Source: Escherichia phage vB_EcoS_ESCO30
Reading direction: 5' to 3' (one strand)
Length of the DNA: 64,000 nucleotides
Sequence record: NC_106513.1
The notes beneath the pieces were generated by a model, which saw only the letters and a list, made by a program, of their open reading frames with translations, was not told the DNA's origin and did no database searches. This document shows positions 36,293 through 62,933 of this stretch, piece by piece (the stretch's first letter is position 1; every line of letters begins with the position of its first letter). The translations under genes and the position numbers were made by a program.

Positions 36293-36321
36293 TTGCTTTT
36301 TGCTGTAAACCTTGTTATAAT
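36293..36321 (+). promoter_or_regulatory. sigma70-like early promoter (TTGCTT-17-TATAAT)
   Basis: Consensus hexamers with AT-rich upstream region, upstream of phoH. Confidence 0.5.
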
Positions 36322-36397
36322 ATATTTGTAAGTTGATAAACAAGATCTCTTTGTTGATCCTCTGTTAGAAGCGAAGTACACTATAGGAGTGTTATTT

Positions 36398-37150
36398 ATG
36401 GGAAAAGCACGTCAAAAAAGAGAGAACCGCAATGGTTCAAGAAAGCGTGGCAACAAATATGAGAATAACGTAATTCAGGCTGATTTTTCTAATGATTACG
36501 CTAATCCAGTTGCTAAATCCCTAGTAGGTAAAAACCGCGAGCAAAAATCATATATCAATATGATCAAGAACAACACAGTGACTGTGGGTATTGGTGAGCC
36601 AGGTACAGGTAAAACCTTTATTCCGTCTGTTCTTGCAGCTCAGGAACTCGTAGACATTCACTCAGATATTGAGCAAGTGATCCTCGTACGTCCTAATGAA
36701 CCTCTAGGTAAGTCTCTTGGTATGCTTCCTGGTGATCTAGCGGAAAAGCTAGAGCCTTGGTTAGAGCCAATAGCTGATGGTATGAAATGGGCCATCGGTG
36801 ATCATGCCTATAAGGGATATGTCGAACGTCAGAAAATTAAATTTTTGGCTATAGAACATGCTCGTGGCAGAACTTTCAACAACTCCTATGTAATTGTCGA
36901 TGAAGCTCAGAATATTTCCGTTGAGGCAATGGTTTGTCTCCTAACTCGTGTAGGACAAGACTGCCGTTTAATTATCTGCGGAGATATAGCTCAGAAAGAC
37001 ATTAAAGGTGACTCAGGTCTAGCACTACTTATGGAAGTCTATGAGAAATACGAAAATGCCCCATTCTCAATGATCGAATTGATTGATAACGTTCGTTCTG
37101 TTGAGTCTAAAGCATTCTATGATATTTTTAAAGACATGGGGAAGGTGTAA
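36398..37150 (+). CDS. phoH: PhoH-like ATPase
   Basis: Walker A GEPGTGKTF, Walker B VIVDEAQN; start set at ATG after TAGGAG SD. Confidence 0.8.
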   Translation: MGKARQKRENRNGSRKRGNKYENNVIQADFSNDYANPVAKSLVGKNREQKSYINMIKNNTVTVGIGEPGTGKTFIPSVLAAQELVDIHSDIEQVILVRPNEPLGKSLGMLPGDLAEKLEPWLEPIADGMKWAIGDHAYKGYVERQKIKFLAIEHARGRTFNNSYVIVDEAQNISVEAMVCLLTRVGQDCRLIICGDIAQKDIKGDSGLALLMEVYEKYENAPFSMIELIDNVRSVESKAFYDIFKDMGKV

Positions 37151-37151
37151 T

Positions 37152-37349
37152 ATGGGAAACGTCGTACATCTACACCGTAAAACTAAAATACATCGTACTT
37201 CACTGAGTGCTGCTAATATGATTACACGTAAGGAAGGGGAAGAAAGTCCTAAGACTACCCTAGCGTGGAAAATTGTAACCTCAAATCCAAATCGGCCCTT
37301 CAATTATAATGAACTAAGTACCTCAATAGATATTCTGCTGAGAACTTAA
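37152..37349 (+). CDS. hypothetical protein
   Basis: Small ORF starting 1 nt after phoH stop (MGNVVHLHRK...). Confidence 0.35.
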   Translation: MGNVVHLHRKTKIHRTSLSAANMITRKEGEESPKTTLAWKIVTSNPNRPFNYNELSTSIDILLRT

Positions 37350-37494
37350 GTGGCCAAAAACTAGACTGACAACACAGAAGGCCTGGGTATGAAAATACTC
37401 GGGCCTTTTCTATCAGAAAATTTTATTTGCCAAATGACTGAGAATAAAGTAAACTATTTCCTAAATCCCGATAACCATAAAAAAGGAAAACCAA

Positions 37495-39825
37495 ATGAGC
37501 CATCGCATTGAAAAAGTAATTAAACGTGACGGTACTGTAGAAGACTTTGCTCCTGAAAAACTCAATGGTTGGGCAGAGTATGGTTGCAAAACAGTTGATG
37601 TAAGTTGGTCAGCCATTACTATGGCTGCTCAAAAAACTCTGCCTAAAGGGGTTGTAGATTCCGATACTCTGATGGATGCGTTAATTAAAGCTGCTGAAAG
37701 TCTTATCAAAGATAATCCAGCATACGACGTACCAGCAAAGGAACTACGTCTTGCGCAGATGCGTAAACGTCTTTATGATTCCTTCGAACCACCTTCTCTA
37801 CGCTTCTTCCACGATCATATGGTTAGTGTAGGTGCATGGGAAGACATGAGTGCATGGATTACCGATGAGCAGTTTGAGGCTTTGAATCAGGTTATTGACC
37901 ATGATCGCGACCGACTTTTTACTAGTGGTGGACTGAAGCAGTTCTTTGATAAGTATTCCCGTCGTAACATAGCCACTGGTGAAATTTATGAAACTCCGCA
38001 GTTTGCCTACATGGGTATGGCAATGGCGATGCTATCTCAACCTAACTGGACAATTCTAGATGCAATCGACCTCTACAACGCAATGTCACTCCACAAAATC
38101 AACGTTCCTACGCCGCCACTGGTTGGTCTGCGCTCTAGTGACCGTGGATTTGCTAGTTGTTGCCTCGTTGATTCCACTGACACATTGGATTCAATCGACA
38201 CAGCCGAGCACATCGTCTTCAAAATGGTCGCAGCCAGAGCGGGAATCGGGTATCATCTTGAAAGCCGATCAATTGCTGATCCGGTGCGAAATGGGGCATT
38301 CCCGCATTCCGGAAAACTGCCATATTATCGACACATTGACCGCTCAGTAAAGGCCAATACTCAGCAAACTCGTGGTGGTTCTGCTACAGTGTCTTATTCA
38401 TACTTTGACCCTGAAATCATTCAATTGATGCAGGTTAAGCAGCAACGTGCTACAGATGAGAATAAAATCGATAAGATGGATTATTCTCTGAGCTTCAACA
38501 ATCTTTTGTTAAAACGTTATCTGAAAAATGAAGATATTACGCTAATGTCATACTTCTATGCTCCAGAAGTTCATGAAGCGTTTTATAGTGATGACGAGGC
38601 TAAATTTGAAGAAATCTATGTGGCAGCGGAGAAACGTGTGGCATCTCTTACAAAGATCGACCACGAAGGAAAAACAGTTCCAGCAGCTCCTAAAGTCTCT
38701 GCAAAAGAAATCCTAGATACTTGGCTACGTATCCGAATGGAAACAGGACGTATGTATGCCCACCACATCGGGGAATCTAATCGTCACGGTAACTTCCTTG
38801 ATCCGATCCGTATGACAAACCTTTGTGTTGAGATTACTCAGCCTACACGCCCGTTCCATCATATCACGGAACTGTATAAAACAAAAGAACAACTTGATCA
38901 AATGAAGCCGGAGGATATTGGTGAAGTATCTCTGTGTAACTTAGGTGGTGTTGTACTTGGACGCATGGAATCTCTGGCTGAGTGGGAAAAAACTTGCTAC
39001 ATCCTTCTGAAATTCGTTGATACAATTATCGAAATTCAGGATTATCCGTTCCCAACTATGGAATATACGGCTAAGAAACGTCGTAATGTTGGTATTGGCC
39101 TAATGAACGCAGCAGGTGCAATGGCCGCAGAAGGTCTGGCTTACGAAGGTATTGAAGCCCGTAACTGGATTCACCGTGAGGCTGAAAAACTGTCCTACTT
39201 CCTGCATAAAGCCTCTGTACGCCTAGCTAAAGAACAGGGTGCATGTGAGTGGTTTGATCGTACTAAACCATCTAAAGGAATTCTGGTAATCGACACGTAC
39301 AAGAAAACTGTTGATGAACTGGTATCCGTAGGTCTAGAAATGGATTGGGAGTCTCTACGTGCAGATATTCTGAAATATGGTATGCGTAACTCTGTTCTGA
39401 CTGCTCAGATGCCGGGAGAAAGTTCTTCTGTTCTGTTAGGTGTTACTAACTCTATCGAACCACCACGTAAGATTGTATCTATCAAGGGTAGTGCAGTAAA
39501 TAAAGTAATTGCAATTGCTCCAGGTGCAACCGATTGGGAAACGTTAATGAGCTATAAACTGGCTTATGATGTAGATCGTATCGAGTGGATCAAATGGGTA
39601 GCAACTATGCAGAAATTCTTCAGTCAGTCTATCAGTACGAATATGTACTATGACTACACCAAGTTTGAGAATGAAATCATTCCTGGCCCAGTAGTAGTTC
39701 GTGATTTCATGACTGCTGTTAAGTATGGGTGGAAAACCTTCTACTACGCAAACTTCAACACCGAAAATGGTGGGGGTGCTGGAGAAGAAGCAGCCGGTTG
39801 TGCATCCGGTGGTTGTACTATTTAA
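37495..39825 (+). CDS. nrdA: ribonucleoside-diphosphate reductase large subunit (class Ia)
   Basis: 776 aa; N-terminal ATP-cone-like segment, catalytic-core motifs, C-terminal CxxGGC...redox tail. Confidence 0.85.
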   Translation: MSHRIEKVIKRDGTVEDFAPEKLNGWAEYGCKTVDVSWSAITMAAQKTLPKGVVDSDTLMDALIKAAESLIKDNPAYDVPAKELRLAQMRKRLYDSFEPPSLRFFHDHMVSVGAWEDMSAWITDEQFEALNQVIDHDRDRLFTSGGLKQFFDKYSRRNIATGEIYETPQFAYMGMAMAMLSQPNWTILDAIDLYNAMSLHKINVPTPPLVGLRSSDRGFASCCLVDSTDTLDSIDTAEHIVFKMVAARAGIGYHLESRSIADPVRNGAFPHSGKLPYYRHIDRSVKANTQQTRGGSATVSYSYFDPEIIQLMQVKQQRATDENKIDKMDYSLSFNNLLLKRYLKNEDITLMSYFYAPEVHEAFYSDDEAKFEEIYVAAEKRVASLTKIDHEGKTVPAAPKVSAKEILDTWLRIRMETGRMYAHHIGESNRHGNFLDPIRMTNLCVEITQPTRPFHHITELYKTKEQLDQMKPEDIGEVSLCNLGGVVLGRMESLAEWEKTCYILLKFVDTIIEIQDYPFPTMEYTAKKRRNVGIGLMNAAGAMAAEGLAYEGIEARNWIHREAEKLSYFLHKASVRLAKEQGACEWFDRTKPSKGILVIDTYKKTVDELVSVGLEMDWESLRADILKYGMRNSVLTAQMPGESSSVLLGVTNSIEPPRKIVSIKGSAVNKVIAIAPGATDWETLMSYKLAYDVDRIEWIKWVATMQKFFSQSISTNMYYDYTKFENEIIPGPVVVRDFMTAVKYGWKTFYYANFNTENGGGAGEEAAGCASGGCTI

Positions 39826-39831
39826 TAAAAA

Positions 39832-39866
39832 CAAGGAGATCTTCGGGTCTCCTTTTTCTTTGAAAT
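39832..39866 (+). terminator. rho-independent terminator after nrdA
   Basis: AAGGAGA-loop-TCTCCTT hairpin followed by TTTTTCTTT. Confidence 0.6.
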
Positions 39867-39871
39867 TTTAC

Positions 39872-39900
39872 TTGCTAATCGCTATCAGATTTGCTATAAT
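39872..39900 (+). promoter_or_regulatory. sigma70-like promoter (TTGCTA-17-TATAAT) upstream of nrdB
   Basis: Consensus hexamers. Confidence 0.5.
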
Positions 39901-39931
39901 ATTCCTGAAATAGTGAGAAAGAGGAAAATCA

Positions 39932-41077
39932 ATGACTACTTTACTAAACCTGAATTGGGATCATACTAACGCTGACCTTTTCCTGGGAGATTCTCTCGGT
40001 ATCGCAGATTATGTACGTGTAGCACATCCAGAACTAGAACGTCTGGCACTTCTGCAACGCTCTCAATTTTGGACTGAGACAGAAATCAGTCTGGAGGCAG
40101 ATAAGAAACAATGGCCTAATCTCCCGCGTGAAATTCAGGAAATTACACTCCTGAACTTAGCATGGCAGACTCAAACTGATTCCTTTATCAGTCGTGCCCC
40201 TGAAGCAGCTATTATGCCACTTGTAAGTCGTCCAGAATTGGAAGGTATGCTCAAACAGTGGAGCTATTTTGAAGACCTGCATAGTCGTGCTTATAGCAAT
40301 ATTATTCGTAATGTGCTGACTGATCCAGCAGAATTTATTGATTCTGTAACCAAAAACCAAGAAGCATTCGCGCGCATCGCTGATTCTGTTGAACTATTCG
40401 ATGAACTGTACCAGTTAGGTCAGTATTTCATCGCAGTACGCGATCATCGTGGCGACAATACATACCCAGAAACGGAGTTCCCTGAAGTTAAACGTGAAAC
40501 TCAGGCTAAACTATTAGACGCTTACTTTGCGATCTATGGTCTGGAAGCAATGCAGTTTTACGCATCCTTTGCATGTACCTTTGCATTAGCAGAGAACGAT
40601 ATTCTGCAAGGTATTGCTAAAAATCTGCAATTAATCGCTAAAGATGAAGCTCTGCACACTCAGATGTCAAAAGCAATCATCCAGATTATGTTTCAGCAAT
40701 TTGACAAAGATCTGGTAGATGAGGCAGTGGCTAAAGCACCAGCACAGCTCCTGAAAACTCTGAAAACTGAAATTGAATGGGGTCATTTCATTTTCAAAGG
40801 TCGTAGTCTGATTGGCTTGAATGCAGAACTTCTAGAAGAATATCTGTACTTTGTGGGGCGCAATGCATTTATGCACATCGGTATAGAATGGCCAAGTAAT
40901 CTGCCGGTAATCACCAAAAACCCTATTCCGTGGATCATGAACTGGTTGGATACTACTTCTCTACAGCCTGCTCCGCAAGAAATCCAGATTGGTGCAGCTT
41001 ACCGTGTAGGTCAGGTAACTGAGACCTCTACTGATACTCTGAAAGATCTGGGCAATGAATTTGGAGATTTCCTATGA
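39932..41077 (+). CDS. nrdB: ribonucleoside-diphosphate reductase small subunit
   Basis: 381 aa; di-iron ligand pattern (E...EALH...) and conserved tyrosyl-radical region. Confidence 0.85.
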   Translation: MTTLLNLNWDHTNADLFLGDSLGIADYVRVAHPELERLALLQRSQFWTETEISLEADKKQWPNLPREIQEITLLNLAWQTQTDSFISRAPEAAIMPLVSRPELEGMLKQWSYFEDLHSRAYSNIIRNVLTDPAEFIDSVTKNQEAFARIADSVELFDELYQLGQYFIAVRDHRGDNTYPETEFPEVKRETQAKLLDAYFAIYGLEAMQFYASFACTFALAENDILQGIAKNLQLIAKDEALHTQMSKAIIQIMFQQFDKDLVDEAVAKAPAQLLKTLKTEIEWGHFIFKGRSLIGLNAELLEEYLYFVGRNAFMHIGIEWPSNLPVITKNPIPWIMNWLDTTSLQPAPQEIQIGAAYRVGQVTETSTDTLKDLGNEFGDFL

Positions 41078-41607
41078 TTACAGCAATGTATGCAGTTGGG
41101 CCGAATGGGGAGTTCGGCCTCCGAGGTAAGCTTCCCTGGGGTTCTTTTAAAGAAGAACTAGATGCTTTTTATTCACAATTAGATGTACTAAATCCTGATA
41201 ATATTATTATTGGGGCGGGTACTTATTTAGCTCTTCCATATGCCGTTAGGGAACGTATGATTGGAGCTTCTGACCTATTTATTCGTGCTGATCGTCCACT
41301 GCCAGACGATATTACACATGATATTTACACCCCAATTTCTAAGATTGGGGATACATTGCCCACGTTCTTAAAAGATCAACAGACAGTGGTTTTAGGTGGC
41401 GCAACATTACTGTACGAAATGTATATTCATGGTCATATTGAAAGTGCTTTCGTATCCACAATCTTTAGTAATCAAAAACTAGAGGCAGATGTACATCTGG
41501 ATAATACGATTCTAGATTACAACTATGAATCTACTCGTTTAGTTTACGCAACTGGCGCAAACAGTGATAACAGCCTGCGATTTGTACAGGAATTGGTTAC
41601 TTATTAA
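41074..41607 (+). CDS. dihydrofolate reductase
   Basis: 177 aa; [15 protein letters not shown]...LPW N-terminal DHFR signature. Confidence 0.75.
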
Positions 41608-42461
41608 TGGATCAGTATATCGAAGTTGGAAAACGTATTCTATCAGAGGGTCAGTGGGTAACGAATCCTAGAACAGGGGTTCGTTGCCTCACTATTATTG
41701 ACGCAGACTTTACTTTTAACGTAGGTGCAGGGGAATTCCCCCTTATTACTACTCGTAAGGCGTTTGCAAAACAAGCAATAATGGAAATGATTGGGTATCT
41801 ACGTGGGTATGACTCAGCAGCACAATTCCGCGCTATTGGTGTTAACACATGGAATGCTAATGCAAATGAAAACTTAGCTTGGCTAGACAATCCATACCGT
41901 AAAGGTGAGGATGATATGGGACGAGTCTATGGTGTTCAAGGACGTCAGTGGACTAATTCCGATGGTCTTATGTTTGACCAATTAGCCAAGATTTATCATA
42001 ATCTGAAAAAGGGCATTGATGATCGTGGGGAAATTCTAACCTTCTGGAATCCTGGAGAGTTCTCGAAAGGTTGCTTACGTCCATGTATGCATACTCATCA
42101 GTTCTCTATTTTGGGGGGTACATTATACCTGAACTCTTTCCAGAGATCTAATGACTTCCTGTTAGGCCAAGTATTTAACATGGTTCAGTGCTATACGCTT
42201 CTAGCATTAATGGCACAGATTACGGGCCTTAAACCAGGAATTGCACGCCAGAAGATTATCAATCTTCATATCTATGAGGATCAGTATAATGTTTTGATGG
42301 AGCACAAGCAATTCGATCGTGAACCTTTTGCACTCCCAACTCTAGAAATTAATCCAAATATTAAGACTTTAGATGACGTATTGACTTGGGTAAGTAAGGA
42401 TGATTTTACTGTTCAAGGTTATGAACATCATCCAGCTATTGCATATCCATTCACTGTTTAA
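41607..42461 (+). CDS. thyA: thymidylate synthase
   Basis: 284 aa; ...FWNP... and [10 protein letters not shown] active-site region. Confidence 0.8.
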
Positions 42462-42474
42462 TTTAAAATATTAT

Positions 42475-42504
42475 TTGCTTTAATCCCAGTACTTATAGTA
42501 TAAT
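42475..42504 (+). promoter_or_regulatory. sigma70-like promoter (TTGCTT-18-TATAAT)
   Basis: Consensus hexamers; followed by SD-containing hairpin CTCCTATA-loop-TATAGGAG. Confidence 0.45.
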
Positions 42505-42535
42505 ATCTCCTATATACATTATAGGAGATATATTT

Positions 42536-43090
42536 ATGATCGTACAAGAGGGGTGGACAAAAGAATCCGCACGTAATAGGTTTATCTATAATCCTCTTAC
42601 TGGGGAGATTTTAAATAGAATTAACAGTGGTAGGGCTAAGAAAGGACAGACAGCCGGGTACCTCGACAAGTCTACTGGATATATTCGGGTAACATTGGCA
42701 GGAAAAAGAATGAAAGGACATCAGTTAGCCTTCTTATACATGGAAGGATATATACCTGATACTATAGATCACATCAACAGAATAAAATCTGATAATAGAT
42801 GGTGTAATTTAAAGGAATCTTCACCCCAAGAGAATGCTAGAAATATTAAAGCAAGAAGTAAATCTGGTTATTTAGGGGTTGGGTGGCATAAGCCAAGTCA
42901 AAAATGGTGGGTATATACTAAAGATGTAAAAGGAGCGCAGATTAATGGTGGTTACTTTGATTATACGAAATTAGAGGAAGCAGTCAATAAAGCTAATGAA
43001 CTCCGTCAGCAATTACATGGACATACTGCTATTTTAGAAGTTTTTAATCCTGATCAACCAATACCTACCATAGAGGAACTTAATAAATGA
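42536..43090 (+). CDS. HNH homing endonuclease (HNH + AP2-like domain)
   Basis: HINRIKSDNRWCNL HNH core and GYLGVGW motif; paralog of 18378-18908; inserted between thyA and RNase H. Confidence 0.75.
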   Translation: MIVQEGWTKESARNRFIYNPLTGEILNRINSGRAKKGQTAGYLDKSTGYIRVTLAGKRMKGHQLAFLYMEGYIPDTIDHINRIKSDNRWCNLKESSPQENARNIKARSKSGYLGVGWHKPSQKWWVYTKDVKGAQINGGYFDYTKLEEAVNKANELRQQLHGHTAILEVFNPDQPIPTIEELNK

Positions 43091-43563
43091 GTGTTTTCCA
43101 CATTTACACAGATGGTGCTTGTAAGTCTAATCCAGGTCCAGGTGCTTGGGGTTTTATTGTCTATGATGATAACGACGATCGTTTAGGTTCTAAATCTGGT
43201 TATAATCCTAAAACCACAAATAACGAGATGGAACTCACAGCTATTGTAGAAGCTCTACGTTGGTCCGTTAAAAAAGATAATAGACCAATTGCTATCTATA
43301 CTGACTCTGCTTATTGCAAAAATGGTATGGAAAGTTGGATGTTTTCTTGGCAAAAGAAAGGCTGGAAGAAAGCAGATGGTGAAATCCCTCTTAATCTAGA
43401 ACTTTGGCAAGAAGCATTTAAATTAACTCAGCAATACATTAACTTCCACAATACTAATCCTACTTTTATTAAAGTAAAAGGGCACTCAGGAATTAGTGGT
43501 AATGAAGCTGTAGATGCACTATGTAATACAGTTATTACTGAAGCTGAAATGGCTGAGATGTGA
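43087..43563 (+). CDS. ribonuclease H
   Basis: 158 aa; MSVFHIYTDGACKSNPGPGAWG RNase H1 N-terminal signature, later acidic catalytic residues. Confidence 0.8.
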   Translation: MSVFHIYTDGACKSNPGPGAWGFIVYDDNDDRLGSKSGYNPKTTNNEMELTAIVEALRWSVKKDNRPIAIYTDSAYCKNGMESWMFSWQKKGWKKADGEIPLNLELWQEAFKLTQQYINFHNTNPTFIKVKGHSGISGNEAVDALCNTVITEAEMAEM

Positions 43564-43583
43564 TAAATAAATTAAAAATTTTC

Positions 43584-43612
43584 TTGCTTAAAGCCCTTTA
43601 ATTTAGTATAAT
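43584..43612 (+). promoter_or_regulatory. sigma70-like early promoter
   Basis: TTGCTT-17-TATAAT. Confidence 0.5.
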
Positions 43613-43638
43613 ATTCGTATTGAAAGTGAGGGGGCTTT

Positions 43639-43917
43639 ATGCGAATTTATAACTCAAATTCATTAGGATTTAAACCGTTGAGAAAACGTGCGCAATCACC
43701 TCGTCAAATAAGAAAGGCTAATATTGGTGAACCAGAAACACGTCTTCCACCTCCCCCAGAACAACGTTTAGTTTATCTGGATGAAGAATTAGCTGAACGC
43801 GAAAGAAAAGCTCAAGAAGAGATTGAGCGTAAGAAAATGTGTACTGCTCCAGCGTATAATAAAGGAGCGTATCAATACGTTTCTGATGAAGAACAAGCTA
43901 AGCTGGTCGGCAGATAA
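43639..43917 (+). CDS. hypothetical protein
   Basis: 92 aa ORF with SD. Confidence 0.45.
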   Translation: MRIYNSNSLGFKPLRKRAQSPRQIRKANIGEPETRLPPPPEQRLVYLDEELAERERKAQEEIERKKMCTAPAYNKGAYQYVSDEEQAKLVGR

Positions 43918-43933
43918 TTTTTAAAAAATTCAT

Positions 43934-43962
43934 TTGCTAAACGCTTCAAATTCTCGTATAAT
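43934..43962 (+). promoter_or_regulatory. sigma70-like early promoter
   Basis: TTGCTA-17-TATAAT plus conserved leader. Confidence 0.5.
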
Positions 43963-44000
43963 ATACTTCATAAATTGATAAACAAAAAGGAAAACAAATA

Positions 44001-44516
44001 ATGGCTAAGCAGAAAAACGCAAAAACTCAAGCAGCTACTACAGTTAAAACTTTCCCGCAGACTGAGGCTAACCGCAAAGCTCGTCTGGAACGCCACCTAC
44101 GCAAGCACCCTACTGATGCTCAGGCTGCACAGGCACTGAATCGTCCGGCCCCGATTCGTCAAAAGCCGAAGGCTAAGAATGCTACTCGTTCTGTAGCCCG
44201 CCTTGTGACCTATGTACAGGGTTATGGTCACAAATCTGTTCCAGTAACACTGAGTTTCAATGCTGGAGCTGAATTGTTCTCTCGTAATGGCATGGCCATG
44301 AAAGATTATGAGAAAGCAGTTAACCAGAAACGTAAACCAACGGCAGATGTACTGCGTGATACTCGTGGCCAGTTTGGTTCTGTTAAGCCAAATATCTTTG
44401 GCGTAGAATATAGCAAGGATAATGTTCGTGCTCTGTGTTACGGTGTGGGTATTAAATTCACAGGCGATTCTGCTCGTAAATCTGCTAAACCAGCTCGCAA
44501 ACGTAAAGTGAAGTAA
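44001..44516 (+). CDS. hypothetical basic protein
   Basis: 171 aa Lys/Arg-rich ORF with SD. Confidence 0.45.
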   Translation: MAKQKNAKTQAATTVKTFPQTEANRKARLERHLRKHPTDAQAAQALNRPAPIRQKPKAKNATRSVARLVTYVQGYGHKSVPVTLSFNAGAELFSRNGMAMKDYEKAVNQKRKPTADVLRDTRGQFGSVKPNIFGVEYSKDNVRALCYGVGIKFTGDSARKSAKPARKRKVK

Positions 44517-44575
44517 TAGATAGGGGCGAAAGCCCCTACAGTCAACTAATTCTCTAACCAATCAAGGATATTTTT

Positions 44576-44791
44576 ATGTTCTCTAAGAAACCACGTTCCG
44601 TTACTGAAATCGTTGCTTCCTTTACTACTATTACTGATGAACTTCAAGCTCGTATTGAGGCTGATCAGAAAATTGCTGCTGATATTCAGAAACAACAGGA
44701 AGAACTTGCCCTGAAACTGGCCGAAACTACTAAGAGTGAAAAATCTGCCCAAACTATTATGGAAAATATCCTTAAACTGCTGGGCAAGTAA
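44576..44791 (+). CDS. hypothetical protein
   Basis: 71 aa coiled-coil-like ORF. Confidence 0.4.
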   Translation: MFSKKPRSVTEIVASFTTITDELQARIEADQKIAADIQKQQEELALKLAETTKSEKSAQTIMENILKLLGK

Positions 44792-44833
44792 TTTAAGTTA
44801 GGGGGCGAAAGCCCCTCTTAGTTTGGAGAAACT

Positions 44834-45070
44834 ATGCGTAATTTTGTAGCAAAGAATGATTTTAACCGTGCTAGCACTCATAAGTCCGCTAGAGATTATA
44901 CACGACTTTCTAGTCATGAGGTAATGGATACCTGTTATGAAGAGCTGGAAGATAACTGGAATGAATGGCCAGACTTTTCTATGGAAGAAAACTGGGATGT
45001 CAGTGAGGATATGCTTCCTAGTTTTAAAGACCCCAAGAAGTGGGAGTCTATTAAAGAGACAGCTCTTTAA
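44834..45070 (+). CDS. hypothetical protein
   Basis: 78 aa ORF. Confidence 0.4.
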   Translation: MRNFVAKNDFNRASTHKSARDYTRLSSHEVMDTCYEELEDNWNEWPDFSMEENWDVSEDMLPSFKDPKKWESIKETAL

Positions 45071-45098
45071 TAGTTTTCTACACAATAAAGGATAAGTT

Positions 45099-45800
45099 AT
45101 GAAAGTAAAACCATTTGGTATGTTAGATATTGAATCTCTAGGAACCCCAGGAGATTGTGGTACTACTCATATCGTAATGCCTTCTTTCGCTTTTGTGGCT
45201 ATGCATGGAATTGATAAAGATCCTGATCTAGTGTTTGTTACTTTGGATGTACAAGATCAGCTTAATTCTGGAGCCAAAGTTACGGCATCTACTCTAGCAT
45301 TCTGGATGGATCAAGCTAAAAATAGCCCATCAGCTCTCCATATTATGGAAGCTATGAAGGAATGCAATCCAAAGCTGATTGCTTTTCAAGATGGTAAACA
45401 TCACTGTACTAATAAGCTTGGCTCTAACTATGCAGCTTATTCTATGGCTAAAAACATTATGGAGTTGGCTCTAGGCGAAAATACTTTGTATTATGGCAAT
45501 GGCCCAGAATTTGATATGACTATCTATTCTGCAAATACGTTCCATGCTGGAACCAATGAAGAGGTAATTCCGTGGAAATTCTGGAATTTGGGTAATGTTC
45601 GATCTCTTCGTAATCTCTGGATGCAAGCTGGATATAGTTACAAAGACCTAGAAGCTGAGGGGATTAGCTGGGCAAAAGCTAAGATGGAGAAGATGGACAC
45701 CATTCGTTATGGGATCTATCCGGTTAAGCATGATCCTGCATTTGATGCCTTAGTTGAAAGCTATTGTGTTGCAGCTATGATCGAAAAAATGAAAATTTGA
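45099..45800 (+). CDS. putative 3'-5' exonuclease (DEDDh family)
   Basis: MLDIESLG (Exo I D-x-E), NGPEFD (Exo II), HDPAFD (Exo III H-x4-D) motif order. Confidence 0.5.
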   Translation: MKVKPFGMLDIESLGTPGDCGTTHIVMPSFAFVAMHGIDKDPDLVFVTLDVQDQLNSGAKVTASTLAFWMDQAKNSPSALHIMEAMKECNPKLIAFQDGKHHCTNKLGSNYAAYSMAKNIMELALGENTLYYGNGPEFDMTIYSANTFHAGTNEEVIPWKFWNLGNVRSLRNLWMQAGYSYKDLEAEGISWAKAKMEKMDTIRYGIYPVKHDPAFDALVESYCVAAMIEKMKI

Positions 45801-45801
45801 T

Positions 45802-45830
45802 TTGCTTCCGGCTCCAAAATTCTGTATAAT
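45802..45830 (+). promoter_or_regulatory. sigma70-like early promoter
   Basis: TTGCTT-17-TATAAT plus conserved leader. Confidence 0.5.
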
Positions 45831-45870
45831 ATATTCATAAATTTGAGAAAACAATAAAAGGAAAACAAAT

Positions 45871-46053
45871 ATGCCAGTATCTAAAAATGTTCGTAAAAAT
45901 GGTAAGAAAGCTACTCGTAATCTTGGTATCCGTCGTATGGCTGAACGTCAATCAGGTATCCAGAAAATCTTTGATCTGTTAAATCGTGCTAATCCTAAAA
46001 TTGATAACAGTAATGATACTGTTCTGCGCACTCTGCTGGCAATTGGTCTGTAA
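45871..46053 (+). CDS. hypothetical protein
   Basis: 60 aa ORF with SD. Confidence 0.35.
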   Translation: MPVSKNVRKNGKKATRNLGIRRMAERQSGIQKIFDLLNRANPKIDNSNDTVLRTLLAIGL

Positions 46054-46106
46054 TAGATCAAATTTAAACAAATTCAAATCTCAAACTTCATATAAGGAAG
46101 CAAATA

Positions 46107-46745
46107 ATGACTACTCGTATTTCTAAAACTCGCGCTCTGGCAACTATCAAATCTCTGGAAGCTAAAATCCGTAAAGCTACTGAACAACAGCTTCTGATCG
46201 CTGTTGGTGAAGGTAAGGATAAAAATAAGGTTGTAGTTGGCGCTGCAATCGAAGTAGACGATCTGTCTAATCGTATTAGGACAGATTTCCAGTCTCTGCT
46301 GGATATGATGTCCCAGCGTGACCGAATCAAAGCAGCTTTGATTAAGAGCAATGCGGAAACAATCGTTGAGATTGGTTCTCGTAAAATGACTGTTGCAGAA
46401 GCAATTGAAGCTAAACGTTCTATGGAGCTTAAAGCTCAGTTGCTGGCTAATATGCGTAAGCAGTTCCATGCCGCTACGGTTAAGTTTAATACGCAGAAAG
46501 CACAGTTTGATGCTAAATATGAGCGTTTGCAGGATAGCATGGCTACCCGCGATAAGAAAACTTCCGAAGATGAAGTTAAAATGCAGCTCAACCTGCTGGA
46601 ACTCAAGAATACTCCATTCTTGATTGATCCGCTGGAACTGGAGAAGCTGATTAAACAGCATGACGAGGAATACCAGGACTTTGCAACAAATGTTGACTTT
46701 GTTCTGTCCGAGTCTAACGCCTCTACTTTCATTGAAGTAGAGTAA
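46107..46745 (+). CDS. hypothetical coiled-coil protein
   Basis: 212 aa ORF with AAGGAAG SD; plus strand chosen over the overlapping minus-strand ORF. Confidence 0.5.
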   Translation: MTTRISKTRALATIKSLEAKIRKATEQQLLIAVGEGKDKNKVVVGAAIEVDDLSNRIRTDFQSLLDMMSQRDRIKAALIKSNAETIVEIGSRKMTVAEAIEAKRSMELKAQLLANMRKQFHAATVKFNTQKAQFDAKYERLQDSMATRDKKTSEDEVKMQLNLLELKNTPFLIDPLELEKLIKQHDEEYQDFATNVDFVLSESNASTFIEVE

Positions 46746-47128
46746 TAATTTAAAAGCTAGTAAATCGGTAGACGAAAGCCCAAGCATCTTACCTCGCAGC
46801 AGCGGTTGAAATACGAGGTTAAATAAGACCGCTGACCATACTATAAAGTATAATCTATTGGAGATTATGTTTATTACATCAGACATTTAATCTGACACGT
46901 AAAAACAAAGCGTCGTTGATATTACCGACACAACTTCAAAGATCAACATTTAAGTATGAAAGCTGAAAAGTTTAAAGAACTCAAACTTCTAAACTTCTAA
47001 AGCTAAAAGATGCAAAGTATTCGTTGATGATTCAAACCCTAGATCAAAGGTACATGGCTCGTAAGATATGGCCTGTGGCGCCTCTAGGCTGTTTATCGGT
47101 TTACTAGTTTCACAATTTAAAAATGTAT

Positions 47129-47157
47129 TTGCTAATTTATTAAGTTTTCTGTATAAT
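47129..47157 (+). promoter_or_regulatory. sigma70-like early promoter
   Basis: TTGCTA-17-TATAAT. Confidence 0.5.
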
Positions 47158-47187
47158 ATATTTTTAAATTGATGAAACGAGGCTATT

Positions 47188-47505
47188 ATGACTTTTCATA
47201 TTTTGATTGATGATGTGCGTAATCTTCACGGAATGGACATTATCATTCGAACCCCAGAAGCCGCTGTCGAGTTTCTGAATAAAACTGATACCACAGGCCA
47301 CTTCGTTTATATGGATAATGACTTGGCTGTAGATGGTATGGAAGGTTATCAAATTCTTCGTTTACTCTTAGAATTTGGGCAGAGACCAAAGAAAGTGGTA
47401 CTAGTAACCTCGAATCCCGTAGCTAAGCAAACTATGCGTAATGATTTGCTTGACTTGGGATACAAAGAAAACCCCAATCGTATTGAATATGATTGGCAGG
47501 AGTAA
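47188..47505 (+). CDS. hypothetical protein with receiver (CheY-like) domain-like motif pattern
   Basis: ILIDDV N-terminal acidic pair, YMDNDLAVDGMEG mid acidic pocket, VVLVTS, downstream Lys: order typical of REC domains. Confidence 0.35.
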   Translation: MTFHILIDDVRNLHGMDIIIRTPEAAVEFLNKTDTTGHFVYMDNDLAVDGMEGYQILRLLLEFGQRPKKVVLVTSNPVAKQTMRNDLLDLGYKENPNRIEYDWQE

Positions 47506-47510
47506 AAAGA

Positions 47511-47960
47511 ATGAAGGCAGCTTTGCTTTTAGTAGCTGCCCTTACCTTCAGCTTTAGTAGTCAGGCATCGCACGATGCAAAAGAAATAGATTGCATTGCT
47601 AAAAATATCTATTTCGAAAGTCGTGGTGAGGGCATAAAGGGAATGACGGCGATTGCACATGTTACTAAAAACCGTGTAAACTCCGGTAAATTCCCAGATT
47701 CCTACTGTAAAGTAGTATATCAGTCTAACCAGTTCTCTTGGGTATCTAAGAGACCAAAAGTTGATAAAACTGATGAGGCTTGGCAAACCGCTAAGAATTT
47801 AGCTAGAGTGATATACTACGTTGATTTACCACAAGATCCTACATATGGAGCACTTTACTTCCATAGTGGTAAAGATAAACCTTACTGGACAAAGAAGTTT
47901 AAGAAAACAACTAAGATTAAGGGACATACGTTTTATAAACCTGTTGTCACTAAAACTTAA
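47511..47960 (+). CDS. secreted SleB/CwlJ-like cell wall hydrolase (Hydrolase_2 family)
   Basis: Signal peptide MKAALLLVAALTFSFSSQA; IAKNIYFESRGE...AIAHVTKNRV motif block. Confidence 0.55.
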   Translation: MKAALLLVAALTFSFSSQASHDAKEIDCIAKNIYFESRGEGIKGMTAIAHVTKNRVNSGKFPDSYCKVVYQSNQFSWVSKRPKVDKTDEAWQTAKNLARVIYYVDLPQDPTYGALYFHSGKDKPYWTKKFKKTTKIKGHTFYKPVVTKT

Positions 47961-47968
47961 AAATTTAC

Positions 47969-47997
47969 TTGCTTAAATACTTAAATTTCCGTATAAT
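47969..47997 (+). promoter_or_regulatory. sigma70-like early promoter
   Basis: TTGCTT-17-TATAAT. Confidence 0.5.
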
Positions 47998-48028
47998 ACT
48001 TCCATAAATTAATGAGAGGAAGCGAAAT

Positions 48029-48198: not shown

Positions 48199-48642
48199 AT
48201 GGAAGAGAATATTTTAGATGTTTTGCGTAGAGCTTTGCAGGATTCTAAGTTTAATGGTTCTGATAAAGAAGTCGCTAAAAGCTATCAGACCATAATCGGG
48301 GATCTTCAGCGTATTGATAAAGATTTCATCACTTCTGAACAATTTGTGTCTTATCTCAAAGCTCAACTAAAAAGCATTAACCAGATGAAAGCTAAACTTC
48401 ATGGTCAAGATCTTGATAGTTATAGCTTGCAGTCCGCTCAGTATGAATACATTCTAAATAAGTGGTTGCAGGAGTATCTGCCTCCTCAGTTATCTGATAC
48501 TGAGATTCGTAAATACTTTGCAGAATTAGTTAAGCTAAACCCTGGAATTACAAAAGGTATGCTGATGAAAGCGATTAAGGAAGAATTTCCTGGGCGTTAT
48601 GATGGTGGTACTGCTGCTCAGATTGCTGGCGAATTTAATTAA
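48199..48642 (+). CDS. GatB/YqeY-domain-like protein
   Basis: 147 aa; YLPPQLSDTEI and KGMLMKA...G..DG motif pattern resembling bacterial YqeY. Confidence 0.45.
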   Translation: MEENILDVLRRALQDSKFNGSDKEVAKSYQTIIGDLQRIDKDFITSEQFVSYLKAQLKSINQMKAKLHGQDLDSYSLQSAQYEYILNKWLQEYLPPQLSDTEIRKYFAELVKLNPGITKGMLMKAIKEEFPGRYDGGTAAQIAGEFN

Positions 48643-48650
48643 AAATTTAT

Positions 48651-48679
48651 TTGCTAAATGCTTATAAATTCTGTATAAT
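48651..48679 (+). promoter_or_regulatory. sigma70-like early promoter
   Basis: TTGCTA-17-TATAAT. Confidence 0.5.
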
Positions 48680-48902
48680 ATATTCATAAATTAGAGAACA
48701 GCGAGCCGATTACGCTGAGTGCAGAATCCCAACCGGAGCGCATTGAATAGAGTCGGTGGGTTAGTTGGAAAACTAGTACACAGGGGGCGGCAATCCCGGT
48801 TAGTGGCTAGAACGTGTAAAATGAGGCGTCTGAAACCTCTCCCCTAAACTCTTCTCTAATTTACTGATAGTGGGGTGTGGAAATCACTTATGTAGTAACA
48901 CT

Positions 48903-52276: not shown

Positions 52277-52483
52277 TTTTTGACACCTCCTAGTATATAG
52301 AAAATGTGTGTCTCTTTGATCACTCATCCATAACATATACTTTACACTACCCCGGCGAAAATGTCAAGGGGTCTTTAAAAATTGCCCCCGGATTTTTAGT
52401 GGGGTCACAAATTTTGGTCCTCACCACTTATCTGCTACCCTTAAGTGCCCTATGATTTTCCCCTAAAAAGTTAAAAAATTTGA

Positions 52484-52512
52484 TTGCTTGAATGCTAAAT
52501 TCTCTGTATAAT
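52484..52512 (+). promoter_or_regulatory. sigma70-like early promoter
   Basis: TTGCTT-17-TATAAT plus conserved leader. Confidence 0.5.
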
Positions 52513-53061
52513 ATATCTATAAATTTGAGAGAGGAACCAAATATGAATGTTGATGAGCTAACACAGCACCTCTTATCTAGGGGATTTGATACTGATAAAT
52601 ATCATTGCTGGTTAAGTCCGGAAGGATGGCTAACAGTCCCGTTGTATGATTTCTCTGGGATGTTGAGGGGCTATCAAACTTATAATCCTTCTGCTCCAAA
52701 AGGTCATGGTAAGTGCCCCCTTGAAGCTAAATACTTTACTTATTCTACCACCCAGTGTGTATGGGGACTAGAAACTCTCAATGGAGATGAAAAAGTAGTA
52801 TTGATCGCTGAATCTGTATTTAAGGCAGTTGCGTTACATAACGCTGGTTATCCAGCCATAGCAATGTTGGGTTCTTCTCCAGGAAAAGCGTTATTAAAGC
52901 AACTAAAATTACTACCTTTTAAATTGGTAGCTGTTGGTGATAATGATCCTGCTGGTGAAAAATTTGCTAGAAAATTAAACGGTTTTGTTTCTCCCGTAGA
53001 TGTGGATGAGATGTCTACCGAAAACTTGAAAAATTTTCTTGCTATGAAGCTAAATTTCTAA
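52492..53061 (+). CDS. hypothetical protein
   Basis: 189 aa ORF; probable start at internal Met MNVDELT after GAGAGAGG SD. Confidence 0.45.
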   Translation: MLNSLYNISINLREEPNMNVDELTQHLLSRGFDTDKYHCWLSPEGWLTVPLYDFSGMLRGYQTYNPSAPKGHGKCPLEAKYFTYSTTQCVWGLETLNGDEKVVLIAESVFKAVALHNAGYPAIAMLGSSPGKALLKQLKLLPFKLVAVGDNDPAGEKFARKLNGFVSPVDVDEMSTENLKNFLAMKLNF

Positions 53062-53081
53062 TATAATATATCTTATAAATT

Positions 53082-53168
53082 CGGAAGAATAGCATAACGG
53101 TATTGCAGCAGATTGCTAATCTGTCGGTTTGAAATATAGCCTTGTGGGTTCGATTCCCACTTCTTCCG
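53082..53168 (+). tRNA. tRNA-Ser (anticodon GCT), type II
   Basis: Loop TTGCTAA; long variable arm; T-arm GTGGG-TTCGATT-CCCAC; encoded CCA. Confidence 0.6.
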
Positions 53169-53177
53169 CCAGATTTT

Positions 53178-53252
53178 GGTTCTCAAGCTCATATGGTATG
53201 AGCACCCGGCTCATAACCGGAAGGTACGTAGGTTCGAATCCTCGGGGAGCCA
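53178..53252 (+). tRNA. tRNA with CAT anticodon (Met or Ile-lysidine)
   Basis: Acceptor and D-arm fold well; loop CTCATAA; T-stem has mismatches. Confidence 0.45.
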
Positions 53253-53473: not shown

Positions 53474-53659
53474 ATGTCTAAGTTTCAAGAACTCAAGCAA
53501 GAGCTAGAAGAATGTGCCTGCCCTGAATGTCTGGGGATTGGAGAAAGTTCTGATGCAGAAGCAGGAGATACTTTTTGCAATATCTGGGTTTGCCCAAATT
53601 GCAATGGTACAGGTATTAATCCTAACTGTGGTATTTCTCTAGATATTGAAAGAGGATAA
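53474..53659 (+). CDS. hypothetical Cys-rich zinc-ribbon-like small protein
   Basis: 61 aa; CACPEC...CPNCNGTG cysteine pairs. Confidence 0.4.
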   Translation: MSKFQELKQELEECACPECLGIGESSDAEAGDTFCNIWVCPNCNGTGINPNCGISLDIERG

Positions 53660-53761
53660 TACCTGTGAAACTAAAAGATTATTATATTGGTTGGTTTGTG
53701 GGACTAGTAGTAGGATTTTCACTAGGCTATAATATGTATCAACTAATAAACTGATTACACG

Positions 53762-54220: not shown

Positions 54221-54250
54221 CTCCTCCAAACAGAATTTTTAAAAATGTAC

Positions 54251-54280
54251 TTGCCTTTTGCTTTAAATTTCTGATATAAT
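54251..54280 (+). promoter_or_regulatory. sigma70-like early promoter
   Basis: TTGCCT-18-TATAAT plus conserved leader. Confidence 0.45.
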
Positions 54281-54310
54281 AGTTATATAAATTGATGAAG
54301 GAGTTAACGA

Positions 54311-54586: not shown

Positions 54587-54622
54587 CTAATACAGCACTG
54601 AGCAAGTTCTTTAAAATTTGAC

Positions 54623-54651
54623 TTGCTCAGTGCCTTAAAACTTGGTATAAT
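54623..54651 (+). promoter_or_regulatory. sigma70-like promoter inside terminator-like hairpin
   Basis: TTGCTC-17-TATAAT; -35 lies within GCACTGAGCAAG...CTTGCTCAGTGC inverted repeat. Confidence 0.45.
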
Positions 54652-54716
54652 AGTTATCTAATTTGGAAACATATTTAAAAGTGTTTAAATTAGAATTTTT
54701 GAATACTTCTAAATAT

Positions 54717-55557: not shown

Positions 55558-55836
55558 ATGCTGATGCATCCTGAAAACTTCTTTATTTACTGCGCGGATA
55601 AGTCGCTGAAACGTAGAATTAATAAAGTCTATCATTATCGTGCTAGTCAACAGCCTTATGTATATGCTTTTGACGGTGATCACATCCCACTAGAACAATT
55701 ATCTTGTGATTACATGATATTGAAGAACTTTGACGAGACGAAGATCTCAAGCGTTCATAATCGACAGAATCCTTTAACGTGGAAATATAAGAGGAAAAAG
55801 AAAGGCATCAAATTCTTAAAAAATGTAGTTGCTTAG
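55558..55836 (+). CDS. hypothetical protein
   Basis: ORF beginning after tRNA; GGAG SD upstream. Confidence 0.4.
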   Translation: MLMHPENFFIYCADKSLKRRINKVYHYRASQQPYVYAFDGDHIPLEQLSCDYMILKNFDETKISSVHNRQNPLTWKYKRKKKGIKFLKNVVA

Positions 55837-55857
55837 TTTCCAAAAGTTCTGTATAAT
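55829..55857 (+). promoter_or_regulatory. sigma70-like early promoter
   Basis: TTGCTT-17-TATAAT; overlaps 3' end of upstream ORF. Confidence 0.5.
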
Positions 55858-55886
55858 AATTACATAAATTGAACTGGAGAAGCGAC

Positions 55887-57506: not shown

Positions 57507-57527
57507 CCAATTTCAAGAAAAACGCAG

Positions 57528-57556
57528 TTGCTTAATGCTTAATTTCTTGTTATAAT
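57528..57556 (+). promoter_or_regulatory. sigma70-like promoter driving an untranslated leader into tRNA genes
   Basis: TTGCTT-17-TATAAT; followed by GATGAGGAGAAATCCTCATC hairpin, no ORF before tRNA-Ala. Confidence 0.5.
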
Positions 57557-57794
57557 ATTTATATAAATTGATGAGGAGAAATCCTCATCATAGTTCACTA
57601 AGGTATTAGCTCGACCTAGGACTGGCTGCCAAAAAGCACGATCCCTACTATTTGGGAGAAGTTCTAGATTAGTCCACTAGATTCAGCGGCAACTGAATAG
57701 TGTATTGGGTTTGCGAGATGACGCAGTTCCTTCCGCTCGAAGCGAAGGTGCTGTAGTTACGCCGAGCTAATAGCCTTAGTAAACTAAAGAATTT

Positions 57795-58937: not shown

Positions 58938-59304
58938 AAATTCTTGGAATATGCCGGAATTGGTAGACGGGACTGCCCAATAGGTTTACTAGGAACATCC
59001 ACTCCTAGAAATATACCTTAAAAGCGGTTGAGTTAAATGGTCTAACTCATGAAGGTTCAAGTCCTTCTGCTTCTTGATACATCTATGGCTCAAAGTGTAA
59101 CGGTGCTATTTGATGCTCTTGGAAAGACTTTCCCGACAGGCGTTCGGGGGTAAGCTTCTGAGGCTAGAATAGAAGAGTTTCTGAGAGCCGCCACAATTGA
59201 AAATTCGTACTCGTCTTGAGCTGCGTGCAATAGGAGATAACTTGATTAGTATTCTAGAACATGCTAATTGAGGATGGTTTCGCTAACCCTGCGAGTTTTC
59301 AATT

Positions 59305-60561: not shown

Positions 60562-60579
60562 CCAAATTTAAAAATTCAT

Positions 60580-60608
60580 TTGCCTTCTCTCTTATTTCTT
60601 GTTATAAT
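60580..60608 (+). promoter_or_regulatory. sigma70-like early promoter
   Basis: TTGCCT-17-TATAAT plus conserved leader. Confidence 0.5.
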
Positions 60609-60638
60609 ATTTATATAAGTTAATGAGAGGGAAACCAA

Positions 60639-61620: not shown

Positions 61621-61662
61621 AGAATAAATAGCTGAGCCAAATTCTAACATCGGGGAGATCTA

Positions 61663-62031: not shown

Positions 62032-62112
62032 TGGGGTTTGGATACGATTTCTCCGAACTACGTGAGGTAGTCGAGCAAATTCCATTTATCTCCCAAGTTT
62101 TAGGAGAAATGT

Positions 62113-62418: not shown

Positions 62419-62427
62419 TTAATAACA

Positions 62428-62466
62428 AACCCCAGCTATTGAATAAGTAGTCTGGGGTTTTTCTGT
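62428..62466 (+). terminator. rho-independent terminator
   Basis: CCCCAG-loop-CTGGGG hairpin followed by TTTTTCTGT. Confidence 0.65.
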
Positions 62467-62539
62467 ATACAGGAAAATAGTTTATGTATAATAAAATTCA
62501 TCCACATTAGGTTAATTTAAAAGACTTAATGGAGGTAAT

Positions 62540-62887
62540 ATGAGCCGTACTTATCGTAGACAATCTGGTGATCAGTGGTGGAAGTCTAAAGAACAATTCT
62601 CTCAAGAATATTCTTTCCTTAAAGAAAATGGCTACTGGATTCGTGTTATTTATGCTAAATCCTGGGATGATGTAGAACAGGAAATGAAGGAAGCAACCAT
62701 TCGTAATGAGAAAAAGGATGGTTATAACTGGAATTCTATTAGTAAGAATGTTAAGTGGCATTCTAATAAAATGGTTCGTCAAGGGAATCGTCAAGAACTC
62801 CACCGCGTGATGAAAGATCCAGAAAATGATGATTATAATCGCGATCATGACATGCGTAAGCGTGGGTTATGGTGGCGCTATGACTAA
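62540..62887 (+). CDS. hypothetical protein
   Basis: 115 aa ORF with GGAGG SD. Confidence 0.45.
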   Translation: MSRTYRRQSGDQWWKSKEQFSQEYSFLKENGYWIRVIYAKSWDDVEQEMKEATIRNEKKDGYNWNSISKNVKWHSNKMVRQGNRQELHRVMKDPENDDYNRDHDMRKRGLWWRYD

Positions 62888-62904
62888 ATTCTGAAATAAT
62901 TCAT

Positions 62905-62933
62905 TTGCTAAACCTCTCTTTTCTTGCTATAAT
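62905..62933 (+). promoter_or_regulatory. sigma70-like early promoter
   Basis: TTGCTA-17-TATAAT plus conserved leader. Confidence 0.5.

Follow-up and report, generated by a model that had tools for sequence, protein, structure and literature searches.

The Repeated Cassettes of a T5-like Escherichia Phage Are Very Probably Its Early Promoters

Here we analyze a stretch of 64,000 nucleotides (nt) from Escherichia phage vB_EcoS_ESCO30 (sequence record NC_106513.1), called the window when meant at its full length, and in it a cassette of promoter and leader that recurs on both strands. The window holds the end of the late region (1–7 kb) and most of the early region. From about 36 kb the genes run leftward on the minus strand and rightward on the plus strand, and the GC skew flips at the same point; 22 tRNA genes lie within 48.9–61.4 kb. 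Across the region 36293–48000 the DNA is about 96% identical to Tequintavirus (T5-like) phages, with 541 phage records matched and Salmonella and Escherichia phages as the best among them. Phage T5 itself is 96% identical over a piece of 700 base pairs (bp) around 26 kb. Judged by these matches, the window belongs to a Tequintavirus genome and is the reverse complement of the orientation used in the T5 reference. All 26 cassettes that we found are oriented like the genes downstream of them, and the weight-matrix scan described below gave none in the late-gene part (1–7 kb). We conclude that the repeated module almost certainly represents the early-class sigma-70 promoters of a T5-like phage, to which the host polymerase would be recruited.

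The original prediction, made from the letters of the DNA, had described at least 25 near-identical copies of this module on both strands, consisting of an AT-rich upstream element, TTGCTW, 17–18 bp, TATAAT and a conserved leader that ends in a Shine–Dalgarno sequence. The repetition is borne out far above chance. The window contains 20 exact matches to TTGCTW-N16-19-TATAAT, while 0.29 are expected. Allowing one mismatch over both hexamers furnished 24 good copies and three isolated false matches (5965 plus, 24172 plus and 42311 minus), which match in the hexamers only and were discarded for want of the flanking motif. A generic sigma-70 consensus scan gave 44 sites versus 53 expected and cannot single out the family; only the TTGCTW/TATAAT pattern is enriched. 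From the 24 hexamer-selected copies we built a two-block position-weight matrix with a variable spacer and scanned the window with it, which is the motif derivation that had been proposed as a check. The scan added two minus-strand copies, with −10 hexamers starting at 30080 and 13015. The 26 strong copies score 36–64 bits and are clearly separated from ten shuffles of the window, which reach at most 4.3 bits. Other matches in the window score 13–22 bits and are mostly off-register echoes of true copies, with two exceptions in the divergent region at 36.1–36.2 kb. Seventeen copies lie on the plus strand (36.3–62.9 kb) and nine on the minus strand (12.9–33.4 kb). The earlier tally of 16 plus and nine minus copies was hence essentially right, its minus count being exact and its plus count one short. 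The interval 36293–62933 given for the family covers the plus-strand copies, but not the nine minus-strand copies, which are located at 12883–33364. In the following list each copy was placed on T5 by BLAST, and "maps to" refers to a 75-bp promoter feature of the T5 record AY543070.

36279..36347, plus strand: cassette with −35 at 36293 and −10 at 36316; 52.8 bits; maps to T5 53638–53712; precedes a PhoH-like gene (Pfam) via a long leader, with the ATG 76 nt after the −10 hexamer.
39858..39926, plus strand: cassette with the nrdB ATG 31 nt after −10; 49.0 bits; maps to T5 50061–50135.
42461..42530, plus strand: cassette with an 18-bp spacer, an atypical leader and −10 at 42499; 36.0 bits, with a low downstream block; drives an inserted HNH gene; in the same thy-rnh gap as the T5 promoter 46937–47011.
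43570..43638, plus strand: cassette with the ATG 26 nt after −10; 41.2 bits; maps to T5 46337–46411.
43920..43988, plus strand: P-H207 orthologue; 47.5 bits; maps to T5 45985–46059.
45788..45856, plus strand: cassette with the ATG 40 nt after −10; 55.4 bits; maps to T5 44393–44467.
47115..47183, plus strand: cassette with the ATG 30 nt after −10; 63.0 bits; maps to T5 43067–43141.
47955..48023, plus strand: P-D/E33 orthologue; 64.1 bits; maps to T5 42227–42301.
48637..48705, plus strand: P16-17 orthologue; 63.9 bits; maps to T5 41554–41628; stable-RNA/tRNA genes downstream and no open reading frame, ATAAATT kept.
52470..52538, plus strand: P15a orthologue; 58.7 bits; maps to T5 37802–37876; Toprim-domain gene (Toprim_2) with its ATG 30 nt after −10.
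53025..53093, plus strand: P15b orthologue; 42.7 bits; maps to T5 37247–37321; inside the 3' end of the upstream Toprim-domain reading frame.
54237..54306, plus strand: P15c orthologue with an 18-bp spacer; 58.6 bits; maps to T5 35897–35971.
54609..54677, plus strand: P14a orthologue; 48.0 bits; maps to T5 35524–35598; leads to tRNA-Tyr (tRNA at 54717).
55815..55883, plus strand: P14b orthologue; 55.2 bits; maps to T5 34759–34833.
57514..57582, plus strand: P13b orthologue; 58.8 bits; maps to T5 32001–32075; stable-RNA/tRNA cluster downstream.
60566..60634, plus strand: P11 orthologue (label in the T5 record); 62.1 bits; maps to T5 28597–28671.
62891..62959, plus strand: cassette with the ATG 30 nt after −10; 58.8 bits; maps to T5 26722–26796.
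33296..33364, minus strand: cassette without the A-tract, following a terminator T-run instead; 42.7 bits; maps to T5 55708–55782.
30049..30117, minus strand: cassette with −35 TTGCAC; 45.0 bits, not a seed copy; maps to T5 58999–59073; long leader, ahead of a replication gene of 954 amino acids.
26004..26072, minus strand: PN25 orthologue; 63.3 bits; maps to T5 63043–63117 (P-N25); precedes D2.
24990..25058, minus strand: PN26 orthologue; 48.3 bits; maps to T5 64068–64142; precedes D3.
23176..23244, minus strand: cassette ahead of DNA ligase subunit A; 54.1 bits; maps to T5 65284–65358.
22001..22069, minus strand: P-K28a orthologue, ahead of ligase subunit B; 63.8 bits; maps to T5 66459–66533.
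17464..17533, minus strand: cassette with an 18-bp spacer, ahead of DNA polymerase; 49.9 bits; maps to T5 70987–71061.
12984..13052, minus strand: P31A orthologue with −35 TTGGCA; 45.0 bits, not a seed copy; maps to T5 75467–75541; full GAGAGAGA leader and no reading-frame start, in tandem with P31B, 101 bp downstream.
12883..12952, minus strand: P31B orthologue with an 18-bp spacer; 60.6 bits; maps to T5 75568–75642.

To call these copies near-identical was an overstatement. Their mean pairwise identity over −45 to +20 is 60% (range 40–83%), and the longest exact run shared between two copies has a median of 9 bp and a maximum of 27 bp. The 22-nt leader quoted in the original prediction matches only four sites at up to three mismatches; the common core is shorter and reads TATAAT-A-N5-(A)TAAATT, followed by purines.

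The conservation outside the hexamers is nevertheless real. We selected the copies on the hexamers alone, so that their flanks form an unbiased sample, and took the start-site register from the published −12/+2 N25 oligonucleotide TATAATAGATTCAT (PMC7472727). Column information amounts to 0.7–1.7 bits at −45 to −39, −6, −3, −1, +2 to +7 and +11 to +14, well above the 99th percentile of 0.37 (mean 0.09) in random sets of 24 sequences. Upstream we find an A-tract, AAAAATT, at −45 to −39 with 0.7–1.3 bits per column; beyond −46 the conservation fades, and the shared block hence resembles a proximal subsite only. The −35 hexamer is kept in its non-consensus form in 22 of the 26 copies, and the spacer of 17 bp, sometimes 18 bp, shows a weaker A/T-rich conservation. 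Behind the −10 hexamer the A at −6 is invariant (26 of 26) inside an A/T-rich discriminator, T is favored at −3 and a pyrimidine at −1. The transcribed part begins with TAAATT at +2 to +7 and continues purine-rich from +9 to +18 with almost no C: among 24 copies C appears zero to three times per column at +8 to +18, and T is rare at +11 to +18. The cassettes fit the extended consensus of the early class, which consists of the A-tract, TTGCTW, 17–18 bp, TATAAT, an ATATT-like discriminator, an A start and a transcribed region that is first A/T- and then purine-rich. The 75-bp promoter features of T5 show the same extended pattern.

The identity of the family follows from T5. All copies but one (25 of 26) fall inside T5 features annotated as "promoter" on the matching strand (AY543070); for the remaining one, T5 also has a promoter in the thy-rnh gap. 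Fifteen of the 25 mapped T5 promoters carry names (P-N25, P-N26, P-K28a, P-H207, P-D/E33, P11, P13b, P14a, P14b, P15a, P15b, P15c, P16-17, P31A and P31B). In a second T5 record, AY587007, these sites appear as "putative early promoter T5P14–T5P38", and their −10-plus-leader parts are annotated as the dispersed "repeat b" and "repeat c". The copy at 26004–26072 (minus) is identical to PN25 of T5 from the −35 through +20. What we observe directly is the sequence pattern with its statistics, orientation and T5 orthology. Promoters in two independent T5 records support the proposal of sigma-70 promoters that carry an AT-rich element upstream and a conserved leader. For the T5 orthologues, initiation by the host sigma-70 holoenzyme is known from in vitro transcription and primer extension in work cited in PMC7472727, including Gentz and Bujard 1985. 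Early kinetics, on after the second-step DNA transfer and off late, have been shown for Ppol and P15A (PMC7472727); their orthologues in the window have −10 hexamers starting at 17495 (minus) and 52507 (plus). The family and its repeat-like nature are therefore already on record. Compared with the T5 early promoters described by the Bujard and Ksenzenko laboratories (AY543070, AY587007), the cassettes have the same positions, orientation and extended consensus. Nothing essential differs: a few percent of the sequence, and an HNH gene that stands behind a different cassette.

Early T5 promoters have been studied since about 1980, and PN25 is both a standard model of promoter escape and the basis of commercial T5-promoter expression vectors. 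The cassettes resemble strong UP-element sigma-70 promoters (rrnB P1, lambda PR and T7 A1) in the A-tract just upstream of the −35, at the position of the proximal UP subsite. What sets them apart is the combination of the A-tract with TTGCTW, an A/T discriminator and conservation in the transcribed region; in rRNA promoters the discriminators are G+C-rich and the open complexes short-lived. T4-type phages also possess dozens of early promoters that are driven by the host polymerase and have a consensus extending well beyond the hexamers, including an upstream A-rich block. The T4 consensus sequence differs, however, and T4 modifies the host polymerase (Alt, AsiA/MotA); to our knowledge no equivalent modification system has been established for T5.

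How the cassettes would work is best seen from PN25. This promoter has a canonical UP element (about 66% match to the consensus), the −35 TTGctt, a 17-bp A/T-rich spacer and the −10 TATAAT, and it combines very fast binding with a very long-lived open complex, so that initiation is limited at the escape step (PMC12464699). The native N25 initial transcribed sequence is A/T- and purine-rich and favors escape. Replacing +3 to +20 (antiDSR) lowered full-length RNA about 10-fold, and the half-time of escape became about 45 min instead of about 3 min (PMC12464699). The cassettes fit the N25 "DSR" type, their non-template strand being A/T-rich and purine-rich from +1 to +20, and the family consensus coincides with the PN25 elements (UP element, discriminator and escape sequence) as well as with the published ATATT discriminator. 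By analogy with PN25, each unit of about 70 bp would recruit unmodified host RNA polymerase and fire a short early operon for proteins or for tRNAs and stable RNAs. The A-tract at −45 to −39 may serve as a UP-like contact for the alpha C-terminal domains. The core of the unit would consist of TTGCTW, the 17-bp (sometimes 18-bp) A/T-rich spacer and the perfect TATAAT; the A/T-rich discriminator with its invariant A at −6 would be the signature of the early class, and transcription would start seven bases past the −10 hexamer, at an A. The initial transcribed sequence, A/T-rich and then purine-rich, would finally free the polymerase quickly from a very tight promoter. What we say on polymerase binding, start site and escape is thus carried over from the literature on T5 and PN25. 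The earlier suggestion that a UP element causes the upstream conservation is consistent with the A-tract and with the UP element described for PN25 (PMC12464699). Promoter escape, which the original prediction had missed, is by the same analogy probably the best-documented role of the transcribed part.

A comparison across phages agrees with this picture. Orthologous cassettes from about 30 contigs of related phages vary least between −45 and +15. Diversity is 0.00–0.07 in the −35, the −10, the discriminator and +1 to +18, about 0.10 in the spacer and the UP element and about 0.2 in the flanks, in ungapped alignments anchored on TATAAT, which inflate the flank diversity and fix the −10 at zero by construction. 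Phages with a D2 protein 68–73% identical keep TATAAT-N6-ATAAATT-purine cassettes, and with a D2 homologue at 41% identity the promoters are only loosely similar. Contigs whose D2 homologue is 29–37% identical have essentially no cassettes, with one match above 25 bits in 12 loci, so the extended consensus appears, from these sequences, to be a feature of T5 and its closer relatives. A scan of IMG/VR with the −10-plus-transcribed pattern gave, among the matches listed, several copies in T5-size contigs and scattered single chance matches elsewhere, which says little about the wider distribution. As a discovery, the T5 early-promoter family in ESCO30 matters little and its residual value is modest. 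With 26 paralogous copies in the window and hundreds of T5-like genomes sequenced, there is a natural mutational series for the positions outside the hexamers, with constraint at −45 to −39, −6, −3, −1, +2 to +7 and the purines at +9 to +18. This series could guide work on a family-wide escape function and on the switch-off of T5 early promoters.

The construction of the diversity profile is one of several points that weigh against reading every cassette as an early promoter with an escape sequence. Two copies, with −10 at 42499 and 43607, match poorly in the transcribed part. In T5, 11 of 19 promoters tested in vitro gave primer-extension products in vivo (PMC7472727), and because only these did, not every copy need be active. 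For ESCO30, promoter activity is read from the sequence and from T5 orthology, and a literature search gave no relevant transcriptome or map of start sites for T5. PN25 is the only family member for which the escape function was demonstrated, and from it the function would have to be extrapolated to the others.

The transcribed part could instead be mainly a translation signal, in which the A/U-rich 5' end is a landing pad for the ribosome (S1) beside a strong Shine–Dalgarno sequence and the gene start follows at a fixed distance. An ATG does follow the −10 hexamer at a distance of 26–31 nt in 14 of the 26 copies, GAGG or GGAG lies between the two, and the purine run thus contains the Shine–Dalgarno sequence of a leader of about 24 nt. 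Most of these short leaders are unstructured (fold z near 0), and the G content at +13 to +16 is higher in the class with an adjacent ATG. The other 12 copies, which are followed by tRNA or stable-RNA genes, long leaders or a tandem promoter, nonetheless keep TAAATT at +2 to +7 (0.6–1.7 bits per column) and the purine run; among them are P15b, where the tRNA begins at about +10, and P31A, which has no reading frame. As the motif persists in these 12 copies, which have no adjacent reading-frame start, the leader is not only a ribosome-binding site. The motif also stands in fixed register to the −10 hexamer and not to the ATG, including leaders of 38–76 nt. We therefore regard translation as the main function as possible but rather doubtful: it probably contributes, but it is insufficient. 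The conservation of the leader fits a role at the DNA level or in initiation, with translation as an added constraint in half of the copies. A leader ending in a Shine–Dalgarno sequence, as originally described, holds for the 14 copies with a close ATG and fails as a family-wide feature.

The same register bears on the idea that the 5' AUAAAUU is a signal for RNase processing or decay, for instance an A/U-rich site of the RNase E type. The motif is A/U-rich, single-stranded in most leaders and loosely similar to the site preference of RNase E. It sits, however, at the extreme 5' end of the transcript (+2 to +7), where cutting would remove almost nothing, its tie to the −10 hexamer points to a DNA-level role, and a literature search gave the idea no support. 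We consider an RNase site, one of the functions suggested originally for the conserved leader, highly improbable. An Rfam scan of the window returned only tRNAs and no known leader family.

A further question is whether the extended consensus serves a phage regulator. The T5 late promoters PG25 and PJ5 have neither the TTGCTW −35 nor TAAATT, while the early llp promoter has both, so the extended consensus marks the early class. All known T5 early promoters share the ATATT discriminator (PMC7472727). The phage protein gpT5.026 weakens the contacts of the polymerase with the −5/+2 segment and its loss raises early transcript levels, an effect for which the ATATT discriminator was proposed as the basis (PMC7472727). 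The early-specific positions, namely TTGCTW, the A at −6 in the A/T discriminator and TAAATT, may thus constitute a code for a phage factor that shuts early transcription off, with the polymerase-binding protein gpT5.026 and the DNA-binding protein D5 as candidates, and the conservation of a −35 that departs from consensus is in line with this. Against it, the effects of gpT5.026 in vitro are two-fold or less (PMC7472727), and the comparison rests on only two late promoters. The cassettes show no dyad symmetry or other operator-like structure in an inverted-match test across the family. A two-site operator derived from the 8-bp inverted repeat of PN25 (AAATTTAT upstream, ATAAATTT transcribed) was accordingly rejected, the longest inverted match in the family averaging 4.7 bp compared with 4.1 bp in shuffled sequences. 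Moreover, T5 early promoters work at full strength with the host polymerase alone, in plasmids (pQE and pDS vectors). Taken together, we judge such a shut-off code unlikely, and slightly less likely still the stricter form in which TTGCTW (instead of TTGACA), the A at −6 and TAAATT act together as a code for T5 polymerase- or DNA-binding proteins that selectively silence early transcription at the early-to-late switch. The binding site for a phage regulator that had been suggested originally thus finds a published hypothesis for the discriminator only (gpT5.026, PMC7472727) and lacks operator-like symmetry.

Finally, the labels "repeat b" and "repeat c" in the T5 record lead to the alternative that the cassettes are a dispersed repeat family, spread and homogenized by duplication and recombination and used as substrates for the shuffling of gene modules. 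Both ESCO30 and T5 have an HNH gene right behind the −10 hexamer of a cassette, and six of the 48 alignment breakpoints between the window and T5 lie inside cassettes, compared with 1.6 expected under a uniform model. We do not accept this excess as evidence for recombination, since the cassettes are located at gene boundaries where breakpoints gather anyway and the uniform null is too lenient. At the mean identity and the median exact run given above, the copies would be poor recombination substrates, because so little exact sequence is shared; their spacers and flanks are unrelated to one another. The annotated st0 deletion junction of T5 is a 10-bp repeat inside reading frames and not a promoter. 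The case for recombination substrates, which the original prediction had raised, is accordingly weak, and we find a repeat family of this kind improbable.

The HNH endonuclease gene of the window (184 amino acids, Pfam HNH_3) lies directly behind the cassette 42475–42504 (plus), within 42475–43090, and occurs in only eight of the T5-like records searched. Its leader departs from the family consensus and forms a 12-bp hairpin (42503–42531) whose 3' arm holds the Shine–Dalgarno sequence (AGGAG). The inferred start site of this cassette falls inside the 5' arm; its own transcripts would therefore leave the Shine–Dalgarno sequence free, and read-through from upstream would hide it. In T5 a related HNH gene, hegH, which is 31% identical to that of the window, is inserted immediately after the −10 of the nrdB cassette (leader about 50040–50085, compared with window 39895–39931). 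The hegH leader also begins TATAATATCTCC, which pairs with GGAGAT at the Shine–Dalgarno sequence. Since different cassettes are occupied in T5 and ESCO30, the two insertions appear to be independent, sharing a promoter-proximal layout.

Some neighboring features deserve mention. Directly upstream of the nrdB cassette (39858..39926) lies a terminator-like hairpin (39833–39854) that is readable on both strands and whose run of T passes directly into the A/T block upstream of the promoter; terminator-promoter pairs of this sort are annotated in T5 as well. At 36127–36155 (minus) lies a sigma-70 promoter of perfect consensus (TTGACA, 17 bp, TATAAT) that lacks the transcribed motif of the early type. 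It precedes an open reading frame at 35206–36111 with T5orf172/MUG113, treble-clef zinc finger and CapR domains, which occupies the place where T5 goes straight into nrdD. Rfam and ARAGORN give different results at two sites: the Rfam tRNA at 53178–53252 (plus) was missed by ARAGORN, and the ARAGORN tRNA at 48902–48975 (plus) has an odd anticodon (act) and an Rfam score of only 36.8 bits. In the P15b-type cassette only about 10 nt separate the inferred start from the tRNA-Ser at 53083, giving a predicted primary-transcript leader of 9–10 nt, UAUAAAUUC (53062–53171, plus). The P13b-type leader contains a predicted hairpin at 57563–57590 (plus), GAUGAGGAG-AAAU-CCUCAUC (−13.8 kcal/mol, z = −4.2), which buries a Shine–Dalgarno-like GAGGAG although only stable-RNA and tRNA genes lie downstream. 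Between P31A and P31B (12957–13003, minus) the P31A transcript is predicted to form an 8-bp hairpin, UUCGGACU/AGUCCGAA (−9.9 kcal/mol, z = −4.6).

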